Below, in pieces: positions 4,009-25,688 of a stretch of DNA of 64,000 nt (its first letter is position 1; each line of letters begins with the position of its first letter). Origin of the DNA: Candidatus Heimdallarchaeota archaeon (GTDB lineage Archaea; Asgardarchaeota; Heimdallarchaeia; JABLTI01). Location of the stretch: assembly GCA_018238155.1 (NCBI GenBank), contig JABCTZ010000036.1, positions 397,241-461,240 on the forward strand. The letters run 5' to 3'. Position numbers and translations under genes: made by a program. The notes below the pieces were generated by a model, which worked only from the letters and a program-made list of their open reading frames with translations, searched no databases and was not told where the DNA came from.

Positions 4009-5118
4009 GTGAGAATAAAATTGACTGAGAAGAAACGATATTCTTTATTGTGCCCACATTGTAAGGATAACATCGCATTTGAATTAAGTGTAGAAGAATT
4101 AGAAAAAAGCTATTCTGGAGAAACGGCAAAAATATCTCTCGCAACACATGGAAGCCCTGAACATACTGTAGATGTTTATATTGATCGTGATGGGCTAATA
4201 CGTTCTGCTTTTGCAAATTTCGCTTCAATTGAAACCAAGGTTTCTCTACAGAATACCTATATTACAGATGCAACAAGTGAACTCAATCCTCAAGAAGGAC
4301 TAGCAATTGGAGTCAAAGTTGTCCCTTATACTGTTACTATTGGTGATAGCTCACCGAAAAAATATAATGAAGAAGTATTTTTTTCGGAAGTTTACGATGG
4401 GTTGAAATCTGATAAAAGAGTTAAAAGTCAACCTGTTTCTGTTGAGTCATTTTTAGAAGCTTTCAAAACATCTCCACGCGATAAGCCTGTGATTACTGTA
4501 ACTGTTAGTATGAAGTACAGTGAAGGATATGCTAACGCTGTCAAAGCTAAGAAAATCCTCGCAAAGGAAGACCCCTCTTTTGCCAAAAATATCCACATTG
4601 TTGATTCAAAAACAACTGGGCCAATGATGAAATTAATGGTGAAAAAAGCTCTTTCTTTGGATGAAGAAGGGCAAAGTGTCTCTGAAATAATTGAATACTT
4701 GAATTGGATACGCGAAAAACATTTAACTTATATTTATGTTGATTCATTGAGTGCTCTTCGAAAAAGCGAACGTGTTGGTCGTGTGACATCATTTTTTGGT
4801 AATTTACTTGGTTTAAAACCTGTCATTATTGAGAATGAAAACAATAATGGAGAACTTAAACCTTTTAAAACTGTTCGTAGTAAGAAAGCTGCTATTAAAG
4901 AAATTGTTAAAGCAATTAGAGAACAATTTGGTTATGTAGAACTTGTTGGAGTAATTATTTATGGTATCATTATTGATGATGCATTAGAAATGCAAGAGAT
5001 GCTTAAAGAAGATTCAAGAACTGAAGATAATGACTTTACAATGGATTTCATTGGTACTGGAGTCGCAATGCATCTGAGCTATGATGTTCTTGGTATCTCT
5101 CTCTATCCTAAATTATGA
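4009..5118 (+). CDS. degV: DegV/FakB-family fatty-acid-binding protein with N-terminal CxxC...H...H domain
   Basis: YITDATSEL, KSQPVS, TVSMKYSEGYANA, IHIVDSK, RVG...GNLLGLKPVI, IGTGVAMH are DegV hallmarks; about 80 extra N-terminal residues contain CPHC. Confidence 0.85.
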   Translation: MRIKLTEKKRYSLLCPHCKDNIAFELSVEELEKSYSGETAKISLATHGSPEHTVDVYIDRDGLIRSAFANFASIETKVSLQNTYITDATSELNPQEGLAIGVKVVPYTVTIGDSSPKKYNEEVFFSEVYDGLKSDKRVKSQPVSVESFLEAFKTSPRDKPVITVTVSMKYSEGYANAVKAKKILAKEDPSFAKNIHIVDSKTTGPMMKLMVKKALSLDEEGQSVSEIIEYLNWIREKHLTYIYVDSLSALRKSERVGRVTSFFGNLLGLKPVIIENENNNGELKPFKTVRSKKAAIKEIVKAIREQFGYVELVGVIIYGIIIDDALEMQEMLKEDSRTEDNDFTMDFIGTGVAMHLSYDVLGISLYPKL

Positions 5119-5307
5119 TTCTTCTTCAACGTTGTTAATAGAAGAATCTTTTTCCTTTTCTTTTTTTAAATTAAGGATAACTTGCTTTGCTTACCATTTT
5201 TTGAGGAAAAGTAAATCATCACTTTATTTTTGTTGATAACTATTTATAGTTTTTAACAAACTAACGTACTATTTTATGTGTATAGAATCTCTCTGGAGAT
5301 AAAATTA

Positions 5308-5379
5308 ATGTCAACAAGTACTGAATTTGATGCCGTTATTGAACTACCTAAAAAAGGTTATAGGGGGAGGGAGGCCTAA
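5308..5379 (+). CDS. Possible 23-aa small ORF (MSTSTEFDAVIELPKKGYRGREA)
   Basis: GGAGAT RBS-like sequence 7 nt before ATG and a TATTTATA box near 5241; could be a gene remnant. Confidence 0.25.
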   Translation: MSTSTEFDAVIELPKKGYRGREA

Positions 5380-5558
5380 TAACCGTGTAAAAAAGAAAAA
5401 AGTTTTCTATTTTGGTCACTAGGCTGAACTTATTTTATACTCATATAATAAAAAGCTTTTGTCGATTACATAAAAGCAATTTTTGCTTTACTTTCTACTT
5501 ATATAAATAAGTTCTTGATTAAGTTTCTATTTTTTTATTGTTCTAAATAGAATTATGT

Positions 5559-23450: not shown

Positions 23451-23498
23451 ATTTATTCCATATTAATCTGCTATATTCAAAATAAAGGATGAAAACAA

Positions 23499-25346
23499 AT
23501 GGCATTTGCAACAAGGTCTAAATTTTTTTGGTCAAGATTTATTGCTACTTGTGTTAAATATCTTGGCGTTGCAAATACTCAGCATATTCGATACATCGCA
23601 GAAAAGCTCTTCCCTACAGAAATGAGTCGACAAAACATTCTCTATCACGTTCGCATTGCTGAAGAGAAAGGTTGGATTGCAACTTTTTCTTCATCTCTTG
23701 AAATAACAGCTGAAAATGAAATTATTTTTAGAAAGAATTTTTTATTAGCTATAAATGAAAAAATATCTGCTCAAAGATTTATAATCATTGGGACAGAAAG
23801 TTTTGAACTTGCCTCAGAAAGTCGAATAATAGACGTTTGCACTGAAGTGAAATTAGGTTCCATTTCAATTACCGACAGTAAAATTCTAACAATAGTTACA
23901 CAAGAATCAATAAAACGTTTGAGCTCTACTAAAGAAAAAGCCATCGGTAATAGATCATTGTTCATGGTTTTGATTCGATTTGGCTGGTTCTGGTTGAATA
24001 TCAATCCAAAATTCACGCTAAACATTGTTGAAGCAATCAAAAATAACATTTCAAAACATAATTTTAATGAGCTCTATCAAATAGATGTCGATTTACTTGA
24101 AATTGTTAGTTTACTTGAACTAGAAACTACACCTGAAATTTCTATGGACGATCTAAAGAATTATCTTAATATTAGTATCAAAATTGCTTCTTCAAAAAAA
24201 CGAAAAGATATCATGAATTTAATGGCAATGATTTTACTTATTTCAGCTCGCTATCTCGTTTCGTATAACAAATTACCTCTTGCTGAAGAATATTTGAATC
24301 GGGGAATAAAATATCTGCGTTTAGTGACTCGGAAATCAATCTTAATGAGAAAATTACATGTTGATGGTCTATTCGATTTAGGATTTATTTATTCACAACA
24401 GGGCTGGTTTTACAAAGCTTTAGGCATCTATGAAAATATTGAGCGGATTATTGAAGAAGAATTTACACTTGCAGAACCAATTTCTAACTTGAAAGGAAGA
24501 TTAGCTCATGGAAAATCTGAATTATATCTCATGATGGCTTATCCTGCTTACACTTTCAGAGATGATGACTATCGAAGTTCTCTATTACGATCATTAAAGT
24601 TCGCTAGAAAAGCAAGTAAAATTTACCAAATAAATAAGAATAAATTAAAAATATCTGAAATCAATTTACTTAGTGCTTGGATTTCAGCATTAATTGGCAG
24701 GTTAGCTCGTGCAGAAGTATATTTGAATAGAGGAATAAAGGAAATGGTTGCGCCTGTTCCCCCAAAGCTCAATGGGTTATATTATAGTGCATTAGCTGAA
24801 ATAAACCGAAAACAAGGAAAGTATGAAGAAGCAATAAGAAATATTTCACGCTCATTCGATTATTTTAAAATTCTTGGCTATTTAATTGGTAAGCTCTTCT
24901 GTATGACCAGATTGGCAGAAGTACATGCCACTCTTTCACAAAAGGATAATCAATATTCATTTATTTCATATGGCAATATGACAAATCTTTTTGTAAAAGG
25001 AGTGTCAGATATGATAAGTCATGTTTTCTTAAATTTTAACAAGCAATTAATGAAAAAGTCAGCTATAATATCTTTTTATGCTTCAGAAGTCGCATTAAGT
25101 AATCATCCTGAAATAGAGAACTATGCAGAAATACTTTCGGGAAAAAATATCTCACCTGTTCTATTAGGAGAATCATTTACTGTTATACCTGAAACATTGC
25201 TAAATCTAGAAATTGTTGCTAAAAAGAAAATTACTTGCATATCCGGTTCTGTAGTAGATGTCTCTGACGGCTATTGCTTTGAAAATTTCAAAGAAGAACT
25301 TGGTAAATTTGACGATTTATTCCAAGATCTATTATCAAAGAAATGA
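23499..25346 (+). CDS. Putative regulator: N-terminal winged HTH plus TPR-like helical repeats
   Basis: MSRQNILYHVRIAEEKGWI resembles a wHTH recognition helix and wing; LG.IY..QG...KAL and LAEINRKQGKYEEAI are TPR-like. Confidence 0.65.
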   Translation: MAFATRSKFFWSRFIATCVKYLGVANTQHIRYIAEKLFPTEMSRQNILYHVRIAEEKGWIATFSSSLEITAENEIIFRKNFLLAINEKISAQRFIIIGTESFELASESRIIDVCTEVKLGSISITDSKILTIVTQESIKRLSSTKEKAIGNRSLFMVLIRFGWFWLNINPKFTLNIVEAIKNNISKHNFNELYQIDVDLLEIVSLLELETTPEISMDDLKNYLNISIKIASSKKRKDIMNLMAMILLISARYLVSYNKLPLAEEYLNRGIKYLRLVTRKSILMRKLHVDGLFDLGFIYSQQGWFYKALGIYENIERIIEEEFTLAEPISNLKGRLAHGKSELYLMMAYPAYTFRDDDYRSSLLRSLKFARKASKIYQINKNKLKISEINLLSAWISALIGRLARAEVYLNRGIKEMVAPVPPKLNGLYYSALAEINRKQGKYEEAIRNISRSFDYFKILGYLIGKLFCMTRLAEVHATLSQKDNQYSFISYGNMTNLFVKGVSDMISHVFLNFNKQLMKKSAIISFYASEVALSNHPEIENYAEILSGKNISPVLLGESFTVIPETLLNLEIVAKKKITCISGSVVDVSDGYCFENFKEELGKFDDLFQDLLSKK

Positions 25347-25448
25347 TTTTTCACTGCTTTTTTTGGTTCTAGATAATCTTTTAATAGAAGGTCTAGATTA
25401 TTAGACTAACAATAAATAACTAGGAGAATACAGCTATGATGAGGAATC

Positions 25449-25688
25449 ATGTTTGCCTACATTCTTAAAACACTACCTCCTAGTGCAAACTTTGTTTTTT
25501 ATGTTTTAGAACGAAATGGCCCAATGCCACGTTATCGTTTATTGGGTGAAACAAATCTTCCAGATAGAACACTTGGTTATGCACTTGATTCGTTATTGAA
25601 GAAAGGTCTTGTTATAAGAGTAAGTGATAGAAAAGATAAACGATTGAGAATTTATCAAATACCTTCTCCAATAATCGTTACAGAATGA
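25449..25688 (+). CDS. Small archaeal MarR/TrmB-like HTH protein
   Basis: LPPSA.FV..VLE..GP.....L..ET.LPDRT..YAL..L...GLV....D.R..IY pattern. Confidence 0.8.
   Translation: MFAYILKTLPPSANFVFYVLERNGPMPRYRLLGETNLPDRTLGYALDSLLKKGLVIRVSDRKDKRLRIYQIPSPIIVTE

Follow-up and report, generated by a model that had tools for sequence, protein, structure and literature searches.

The 64-kb window analysed here (64,000 nucleotides) forms the last part of C15, a 461-kb contig of a Candidatus Heimdallarchaeota genome (GenBank assembly GCA_018238155.1), and encodes a 3,574-residue megasynthase together with the subunits of a biotin-dependent carboxylase, a biotin-protein ligase (birA) and an alpha/beta-hydrolase. 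On the evidence of sequence comparisons, the preferred reading, rated somewhat better than even, is that these genes constitute a resident, vertically inherited module of Heimdallarchaeia that makes reduced fatty-acyl chains de novo. The identity and intactness of the module appear highly secure from its domains and active sites, and the actual synthesis of acyl chains by it is probable. By domain order and sequence relatedness the synthase belongs to the PfaA-like family of 'Type R/S secondary lipid synthases', most of them bacterial, and is not a new kind of machine. An initial annotation of the locus had proposed a self-contained island for carrier-dependent acyl-chain synthesis in a probable Asgard archaeon, with a bearing on the divide between archaeal and bacterial lipids. 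That interpretation seems to hold in part: the host is archaeal, the locus resident and its parts intact, but the carriers bear threonine, DegV and the supposed regulators are not parts of the module, the machine is not of a new kind and its use in membranes is a prediction.

In the proposed mechanism, a carboxylase comprised of biotin carboxylase (BC), biotin carboxyl carrier protein (BCCP) and carboxyltransferase (CT) would generate malonyl-CoA, and the phosphopantetheinyl transferase (PPTase) fused to the synthase would arm both of its carrier domains on a conserved threonine. Two ketosynthases (KS1 and KS2) would share elongation, with the ketoreductase (KR), dehydratase (DH) and enoyl reductases (ER) fully reducing each round; the product would be a saturated or mostly saturated long acyl chain, freed as a fatty acid by the neighbouring hydrolase. 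More speculatively, a DegV/FakB protein could bind the free acid, a FakA-like kinase encoded in an operon on contig C6 could phosphorylate it, and PlsY paralogues could move the acyl group onto glycerol phosphate, such that the acyl chain would replace the isoprenoid chain normally put in by geranylgeranylglyceryl phosphate synthase (GGGPS).

Catalytic equipment of the megasynthase and its carboxylase

Pfam and NCBIfam scans of the megasynthase give the domain order ER1-ER2-KS1-AT-KS2-ACP-ACP-KR-DH-PPTase, where AT is an acyltransferase and ACP an acyl carrier protein domain. The open reading frame (ORF), 10.7 kb long as originally described, starts exactly 57 nt past the stop codon of the CT gene. 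The FabK profile TIGR03151 matches ER1 at 52.8 bits and ER2 at 86.2 bits. Not one of the 24 catalytic or motif residues checked varies among 31 full-length Asgard orthologues (approximately 37-63% identity), and the ratio of non-synonymous to synonymous substitution (dN/dS) relative to the closest orthologue is 0.115 overall and 0.05-0.18 per domain, with values of 0.17 for ER1, 0.09 for ER2 and 0.18 for the PPTase. The catalytic parts needed for the extender supply, elongation and full reduction claimed at the outset are all intact and under purifying selection. KS2 corresponds to the domain labelled a chain-length factor ('CLF') in earlier work, a role rejected here because its Cys-His-His triad is intact and invariant family-wide, which implies that the enzyme has two real ketosynthases. 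The best structural-sequence matches of the megasynthase are polyketide synthase (PKS) modules, those to metazoan fatty acid synthase (FAS) being far lower. It falls outside type I FAS, whether metazoan or fungal/CMN FAS-I, in that its domain order differs and no thioesterase (TE) domain was detected in the domain scans; it may act like a FAS without belonging to that group.

The supply of substrate is represented by BC domains, a BCCP with the ESMKM motif and a PccB-type CT. The last resembles Streptomyces coelicolor PccB (667 bits), its best PDB match being the D422I mutant of that protein, 1XNW; it differs from PccB in reading GGAYIVMG, with Ile rather than Asp at position 422, which we take, from work on S. 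coelicolor PccB and AccB, to be the acetyl-CoA-accepting state. The AT motif, AAFHS, is of the malonyl type (xAFH). CT, BC, BCCP, BirA, KS, AT and PPTase each give a single tblastn hit in the genome, and the only PP-binding domains are the two inside the synthase, with no free-standing ACP. Since the carboxylase and BirA are single-copy and the only carriers lie within the synthase, there is no other obvious client and the supply is apparently dedicated.

The presence of KR, DH and ER and the lack of a FabA-type isomerase make a saturated or largely saturated chain the simplest product to predict. Similarly, as KS and AT are single-copy and FabA-type domains are lacking, cis double bonds are not expected. 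Given the lack of a TE domain, the conserved GxSxG hydrolase next to the synthase is the best candidate for chain release; its GVSLG nucleophile motif, Asp and His align with those of the solved esterases 9h0z and 7q4h.

In the textbook account, phosphopantetheine is attached to serine. Both carrier domains of the megasynthase read DLGIDTVKQ, with threonine in place of serine at this position, and Thr2389 and Thr2483 align exactly with the modified serines of PigH, NDUFAB1 and bacterial ACPs in the PDB. The domains match the PF00550 carrier profile (30.6 bits) and ACPs in the PDB, but both lack the conserved Ser (DSL motif) of the carrier family. Among the 120 best homologues, bacterial and archaeal, the attachment position is occupied by Thr 432 times and by Ser eight times, within the motif E[EA]DLG[IV]DTVKQAE; a few family members combine Ser-type and Thr-type carriers in a single protein. 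The occurrence of threonine throughout the family points to a selected trait rather than an error, and it calls into question the Ser-only rule for a family of synthases spread across hundreds of species of bacteria and archaea. The carrier activation envisaged in the initial annotation would therefore not follow the textbook scheme.

Residency in Heimdallarchaeia and relationship to known synthases

The source genome (4.08 Mb in 46 contigs; estimated to be 90.7% complete with 5.9% contamination) has an archaeal small-subunit rRNA. Abundant Ras-family GTPases are a hallmark of Asgard archaea; the genome has 42 such genes, five or six of them on C15, which also encodes the archaea-specific small subunit of PolD (DP1). 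The tetranucleotide profile of C15 correlates with that of the genome at r = 0.9992, and the island itself scores 0.979, not an outlier relative to random 18-kb chunks (0.988 +/- 0.008). Genome and contig are archaeal, from the Asgard class Heimdallarchaeia, as their contents had first suggested; the closed Ca. Heimdallarchaeum genomes (CP084166.1) belong to this GTDB class too.

The synthase was sought in all six reading frames of 400 genomes from the phylum, grouped into families of which f1 is that of the window, f3 holds the closed Ca. Heimdallarchaeum genomes, and f19 and f20 are Lokiarchaeia-like. It is found in all ten other genomes of the genus, in families f1 to f5 (Table 1) and sporadically in f19 (3/14) and f20 (11/135), and is absent from the remaining families. 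When 10-20 kb around the gene was searched in 18 relatives with the proteins of the window, the arrangement birA-CT-synthase-hydrolase-BCCP-BC was found to be kept in f1, f3, f19 and f20, bearing out the shared synteny that a survey of Asgard genomes had been expected to reveal. The order in f5 is BC-BCCP-CT-synthase, without fused ER domains, and in every Asgard locus examined the CT gene directly precedes that of the synthase. The hydrolase lies beside the synthase in the same four families but, of 47 long loci, in a single one, that of Ca. Heimdallarchaeum aukensis, and is an Asgard-specific addition to the cluster. Both edges of the island and its gene order recur in at least four independent assemblies of the genus, with BpsA/AdoMetDC at one end and TPR, THUMP, MBL and fumarate-reductase-like genes at the other. 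Closed chromosomes of Ca. Heimdallarchaeum also contain the module. The distribution within the genus, the conserved gene order and the closed chromosomes indicate that the locus is resident, as had been argued from the first, and is neither contamination from a bacterial bin nor a chimera joined at the edges of the island.

A FastTree phylogeny of 183 KS1-AT-KS2 cores, midpoint-rooted and subject to composition and long-branch warnings, supports Asgard monophyly but identifies no donor and does not show which way any transfer went. All 60 Asgard rows form one clade (support 100), the internal structure of which tracks the host families, with Lokiarchaeia-like synthases nested beside those of Heimdallarchaeaceae; Thermoplasmata and Poseidoniales synthases occupy three separate places among bacteria. 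This topology is consistent with a single ancient gain by Heimdallarchaeia, or with the gene having been there ancestrally, and with later vertical inheritance and passage to some Lokiarchaeia.

The best NCBIfam match of the synthase is to PfaA (TIGR02813), at 945.2 bits against a cutoff of 1010.1. More than 594 loci in species-representative genomes share its KS-AT-KS-ACPn-KR-DH core, in Acidobacteriota, Elusimicrobiota, Chloroflexota, Myxococcota, Actinomycetota, Gemmatimonadota, Poseidoniales (MGII) and Thermoplasmata. Core identity is 41-45% to loci of Elusimicrobium (Elusimicrobiota), Acidobacteriota and Anaerolineae (Chloroflexota), all of them in the one tree. Type R synthases have been described as having the arrangement KS-MAT-'CLF'-ACP(3-6)-KR with a PPTase, MAT being the malonyl acyltransferase (Shulse & Allen 2011, PLoS One 6:e20146, PMC3098273). 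The hosts reported were Ca. Koribacter, Ca. Solibacter, Elusimicrobium minutum and Roseiflexus, with Type S found in Desulfobacterium autotrophicum; the Koribacter cluster includes an intervening acetyl-CoA carboxylase gene, and the ER-bearing Type S synthase was proposed as a possible core FAS of D. autotrophicum (PMC3098273). The type strains of that paper are not among the rows compared here.

The window's protein has the same succession of KS, MAT, second KS, tandem ACPs and KR, with the associated PPTase present as a C-terminal fusion, and its locus resembles Type R/S clusters in its pfaA-homologue order, its PPTase and the frequent acetyl-CoA carboxylase genes. Among relatives, 22 of the 47 long loci have a PPTase, 24 have BC and 10 have CT. 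By contrast, this locus has an archaeal host, two ER and the PPTase fused in one polypeptide, only two carriers, an added conserved alpha/beta-hydrolase and birA, and a 'CLF' that is a full KS with Cys-His-His. The 2011 survey neither covered archaea nor noted the Thr carrier site. All-in-one bacterial forms running from ER to PPTase do exist (P0053, P0074 and L015, the first two with 35% identity over 95-100% coverage), but the Asgard forms constitute a clade of their own to which these are not sister, so that a direct origin from them is unsupported. Other archaeal relatives, the Type R-like operons of Poseidoniales and Thermoplasmata, share the KS-AT-KS-ACPn(Thr)-KR-DH core; they differ in falling into three clades among bacteria, in having 3-6 carriers and in lacking a fused ER, which is found in just one of the 47 long loci. 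What is new relative to the bacterial kin is an archaeal, fully fused synthase with a hydrolase and birA.

The polyunsaturated fatty acid (PUFA) synthase of bacteria and thraustochytrids, PfaA/B/C/D/E, likewise has KS-AT and KR-DH segments, tandem carriers, a PfaD/FabK-type ER and an Sfp/HetI-type PPTase. The present system is distinguished by its second KS between the AT and ACPs, its Thr carriers, and the lack in this 90.7%-complete genome of PfaB and of a PfaC partner with a FabA-type dehydratase/isomerase. Apart from the synthase, one DH-like gene alone is present, a paralogue of PKS type on contig C24 (C24:2003-3331), encoding a free-standing protein of 442 aa with 41% identity over the DH and an alignment that extends about 130 residues beyond it, toward the PPTase region. 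An ABC-2 transporter gene is nearby, and the paralogue could be a trans-acting dehydratase.

A different de novo route to fatty acids, an ACP-independent archaeal fatty acid synthase complex, is proposed in a preprint (bioRxiv 10.1101/2024.07.05.601840); that complex is described as working without ACP, and the type I megasynthase considered here is unlike it in having carrier domains and a PPTase. A PKS was noticed in a Heimdallarchaeota bin by a 2020 paper, and the literature search turned up no work devoted to an Asgard megasynthase.

Glycerolipid context and competing explanations

Eukaryotes possess bacterial-type fatty-acyl ester membranes despite an Asgard-like archaeal host, and how and when the membrane switch occurred is a long-standing open problem. 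On the minus strand of contig C6 (63778-66560), the source genome carries contiguous genes for a FakA-like protein (330 aa, Dak2 and FakA_M domains), a DegV (290 aa) and a PlsY (245 aa), flanked by the archaeal genes herA and EMG1/NEP1. The set is like the FakA/FakB (DegV)-PlsY pathway of Firmicutes, but the FakA-like protein is short, there are six PlsY homologues in the genome (4-12 copies in each f1 genome), and neither PlsX nor PlsC was found in it; the absence of PlsX is as expected if acyl-phosphate is made from free acid and not from acyl-ACP. DegV genes number about five or six, comprising the copy in the window, those on C7 and C10, two on C44 and that of the C6 operon. PlsY is found in all 58 genomes of f1-f5, and FakA is confined to the class Heimdallarchaeia, being near-universal in f1-f5 and absent in all other classes of the phylum. 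PlsY is directly beside birA-CT-synthase in both of the closed Ca. Heimdallarchaeum genomes, a DegV gene neighbours the module in the window, and the Asgard-specific hydrolase would provide the free acid that FakAB requires. A route from free acid through FakA/DegV to PlsY is plausible on these grounds.

Table 1. Genomes of each family with the synthase and with enzymes of glycerolipid synthesis
Family	Synthase	FakA	PlsY	PlsC	PcrB-type GGGPS
f1	11/11	8/11	11/11	0/11	0/11
f2	1/1	1/1	1/1	0/1	0/1
f3	29/31	25/31	31/31	0/31	4/31 (three marginal, one likely contaminant)
f4	2/3	3/3	3/3	3/3	1/3 (weak)
f5	12/12	11/12	12/12	11/12	2/12 (weak)
f6	0/22	9/22	11/22	22/22	19/22 (divergent)
f7	0/2	2/2	2/2	2/2	2/2 (divergent)

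GGGPS is the first committed enzyme of archaeal ether-lipid synthesis, and is near-universal in the remaining Asgard phylum (E ~1e-55). A phmmer search of all ORFs of the source genome with canonical and divergent Asgard PcrB sequences returned nothing, and a profile search of the source, its sister and two closed Heimdallarchaeum genomes returned only triosephosphate isomerase, in Heimdallarchaeum; the weak PcrB-profile match there was accordingly rejected as a divergent GGGPS. The profile search did identify a divergent PcrB in f5. The only strong canonical match in f3 (G020:C45:1515-2198, E 1.9e-55) may be bin contamination or a recent re-acquisition. Absences of this sort come mostly from incomplete metagenome-assembled genomes, though the two closed genomes agree, and related genomes do not count as independent.

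Published work has reported plsY and plsC genes from Asgard archaea, has noted that Heimdallarchaeum is without PlsC, and has described the ability of bacterial PlsY to take both glycerol-phosphate stereoisomers, in discussions that named neither a source of fatty acids nor a loss of GGGPS. What appears to be new here is that the synthase-bearing families also carry the FakA-DegV-PlsY operon and lack canonical GGGPS, with f1-f3 also lacking PlsC. The co-occurrence in the same lineages of this operon with the lack of GGGPS and PlsC strengthens the relevance of the module to the lipid divide, and the module represents a plausible endogenous fatty-acid source of the kind that discussions of the scattered Asgard plsY and plsC have left open.

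A tentative extension of this reading, unlikely on present evidence to be correct, is that the isoprenoid set by GGGPS has been replaced by an acyl chain from the megasynthase, delivered through its Thr carriers, the hydrolase, FakA/DegV and PlsY, with the second chain added either by a prenyltransferase resembling digeranylgeranylglyceryl phosphate synthase (DGGGPS) or by PlsC. In f1-f3, which are without PlsC, the DGGGPS-like enzyme would add this chain to give hybrid acyl/isoprenoid lipids that CarS would activate; in f4-f5, PlsC would add it to give a fully bacterial-type phosphatidic acid. If true, this would represent a natural living intermediate across the lipid divide in close archaeal relatives of eukaryotes. 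The module, with the kinase-PlsY route and the absence of canonical GGGPS that accompany it, gives the loosely framed 'mixed membrane' idea the shape of a defined, cloneable pathway of around ten genes.

A number of observations weigh against de novo fatty-acid synthesis by the module, or against its use in membranes. The DH is of PKS type and not FabA/FabZ, the hydrolase can be recognised as an esterase in general terms only (S33/Hydrolase_4 proteins give its best PDB matches, E ~1e-15), and no characterised precedent for threonine as a carrier attachment residue was found in the literature. No Type R/S synthase has a known product, and most bacteria with this family have FAS II alongside it, the family forming a 'secondary' lipid system (PMC3098273). 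DegV was not found beside the module in three relatives of the same genus (G090, G084 and G081), and adjacency of PlsY to the module is limited to one genus. As regards expression, a 9.9-kb query matched no sequencing runs; the CT gene by itself brought up four DNA runs from marine sediment, each with only 0.05 of sampled words, and no RNA runs. Furthermore, CarS passes its equivalog cutoff in the source genome and is found in the genus, and a DGGGPS-like UbiA prenyltransferase gene is kept at C15:34779-35720, beside that of the PolD small subunit (NF009523 192.6 bits, NF009521 152 bits, both under cutoff). The retention of these two genes suggests that isoprenoid ether lipids are probably still made. 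Neither glycerol-3-phosphate dehydrogenase (GpsA) nor glycerol-1-phosphate dehydrogenase (EgsA) was detected in the source genome; weak PF13685 matches were rejected as the latter, these being ordinary Fe-alcohol dehydrogenases. The 14 synthase-bearing genomes of f19 and f20 have GGGPS and are without FakA, implying that the synthase is independent of the Fak route. The only reported lipidomes of cultured Asgards, which are Lokiarchaeia, consist of archaeal lipids (PMC13400652). It is also observed that the DGGGPS-like gene is kept though GGGPS, the source of the usual substrate of DGGGPS, was not found.

Several of these points would equally be accounted for if the module made a specialised non-membrane 'secondary' lipid or reduced polyketide, for instance a long-chain hydroxy or alkyl compound serving in the envelope, storage, signalling or protection, an alternative that is credible but less likely than the preferred reading. 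Bacterial Type R clusters are presumed to have such a role, which would leave the module without any part in bulk membrane phospholipids. This alternative would be in keeping with membership of a family named for secondary lipid synthases and present in hundreds of bacteria with their own FAS II, with the PKS-type DH and PKS/Pfa-like KS domains, with the retention of GGGPS without FakA in the Lokiarchaeial carriers and of CarS and the DGGGPS-like gene in the source genome, and with the genus-specific TPR protein and possible small regulator encoded downstream. Near-universal vertical retention in five families under strong purifying selection is, however, more typical of core metabolism than of accessory natural-product clusters, and the complete reducing set and the co-distribution and occasional linkage with FakA, DegV and PlsY also favour fatty-acid synthesis; with KS and AT single-copy, there is moreover no other fatty-acid synthase to feed the many PlsY and DegV proteins.

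An improbable alternative is that the Thr carriers are not phosphopantetheinylated, intermediates instead being bound to CoA, as in the documented ACP-independent archaeal route, or through some other prosthetic linkage; the carrier dependence claimed in the initial annotation would then be mistaken. The scarcity of serine among the 120 homologues would suit this, as would the occurrence of the motif string GIDTVK in no paper of the literature searched. Yet the threonine aligns with the modified serine within a conserved DLGID motif and helix II, its hydroxyl suffices for a phosphodiester, and the proteins with mixed Ser and Thr carriers suggest chemical equivalence of the two; the family also nearly always travels with a PPTase, here fused, with invariant motifs and under purifying selection. 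The remaining alternative, that the island is an artefact of bacterial contamination, a chimeric contig or a decaying recent transfer, is effectively refuted. The mostly bacterial family, the close homologues labelled 'Zixibacteria' in one case and 'Bathyarchaeia' in another, and the estimated bin contamination might have hinted at such an origin, but the archaeal genes on the same contig, the typical tetranucleotide composition, the recurrence of flanks and gene order in independent assemblies and closed chromosomes, the Asgard monophyly tracking host families, and an intact ORF with low dN/dS all oppose it.

Layout of the locus and neighbouring genes

The features of the locus are listed in Table 2. 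BC, BCCP and hydrolase genes form a tight operon upstream of, and divergent from, CT and the synthase, the accB start overlapping the accC stop by 1 nt, and birA converges on the hydrolase gene. The described cluster of divergent accC-accB-hydrolase genes with birA and degV is present in full, but degV is separated from birA by two polyamine genes, the BpsA-like and AdoMetDC pair, and its adjacency is peculiar to this genome. The polyamine pair is kept beside birA within the genus but has no relation to the lipid module.

Table 2. Features of the locus, with positions given in the window
Feature	Position	Strand	Evidence or remarks
DegV/FakB-family fatty-acid-binding protein	4009-5118	+	Pfam DegV, 150 bits
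BpsA-like branched-chain polyamine synthase	5559-6722		Polyamine gene
AdoMetDC (AdoMet decarboxylase)	6739-7122	-	Polyamine gene beside BpsA-like
birA, group I biotin-protein ligase without N-terminal helix-turn-helix (HTH)	7297-8052	+	Pfam BPL_LplA_LipB, BPL_C
Alpha/beta-hydrolase, Hydrolase_4 / S33-like serine hydrolase	8077-8838	-	Pfam
accB, BCCP	8853-9344	-	Pfam Biotin_lipoyl; ESMKM biotinyl-lysine motif
accC, biotin carboxylase	9344-10819	-	Pfam Biotin_carb_N, CPSase_L_D2, Biotin_carb_C
Carboxyltransferase, PccB/AccD5-type 12S subunit	10973-12598	+	Pfam Carboxyl_trans (PF01039), 644 bits
Megasynthase, 3,574 aa	12656-23380	+	Pfam/NCBIfam domain scans
ER1 (residues 1-330) and ER2 (331-715), FabK/PfaD-like NMO-family TIM barrels	12656-14800	+	Pfam NMO; TIGR03151
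KS1 (Cys934, His1068, His1106) and malonyl-type AT (GHSLG Ser1443, Arg1468, AAFHS)	14813-17605	+	
KS2, FabF-like, triad Cys2038, His2186, His2226	18206-19615	+	TIGR03150 fabF, 129 bits
Two tandem carrier domains, DLGIDT: Thr2389 (codon 19820-19822), Thr2483 (20102-20104)	19688-20215	+	
PfaA-type KR (Ser2935, Tyr2948, Asn2952) and PKS-type double-hotdog DH (His3076, Glu3240)	20333-22645	+	
C-terminal Sfp/HetI-type PPTase	22673-23377	+	Pfam ACPS, 4PPT_N; TIGR00556, NF042922 HetI
Tetratricopeptide repeat (TPR) protein, 615 aa	23499-25346	+	Pfam TPR
79-aa ORF, possible small MarR-like winged-helix protein	25449-25688	+	Pfam MarR_2 23.1 bits, cutoff 27
Bactofilin-domain protein, 393 aa	39893-41074	-	
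AMP-binding acyl-CoA synthetase-like protein, 592 aa	52709-54487	-	

Two HTH genes had been described downstream of the synthase. One of these, the 79-aa ORF, has only a sub-threshold MarR-like match; the other encodes the TPR protein, in which no HTH was detected, and the description is not borne out by conservation. The TPR protein itself is found downstream of the synthase in all f1 loci (54-88% identity) and is missing from the loci of other families. Scans for tRNA and Rfam families across the window gave no matches. A scan of the divergent promoter region for bacterial-type promoters and terminators gave no more matches than shuffled sequence, the models being bacterial and ill-suited to an archaeon.

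Variation in the structure of the synthase gene itself is seen in Ca. Heimdallarchaeum aukensis CP084166.1 (G015:C1:485128-495412), where the KS1-AT and PPTase-hydrolase-BCCP segments are duplicated and two ORFs, of 1,510 and 2,729 aa, stand in place of a single one; in the sister genome, G016, the ORF is intact, at 3,519 aa. This arrangement may represent a repeat, or an insertion disrupting the gene. Elsewhere in the window lie a gene for a bactofilin-domain protein, a bacterial-type cytoskeletal polymer, and, about 30 kb from the module, the AMP-binding acyl-CoA synthetase-like gene, which is a possible other activation route for free fatty acids.

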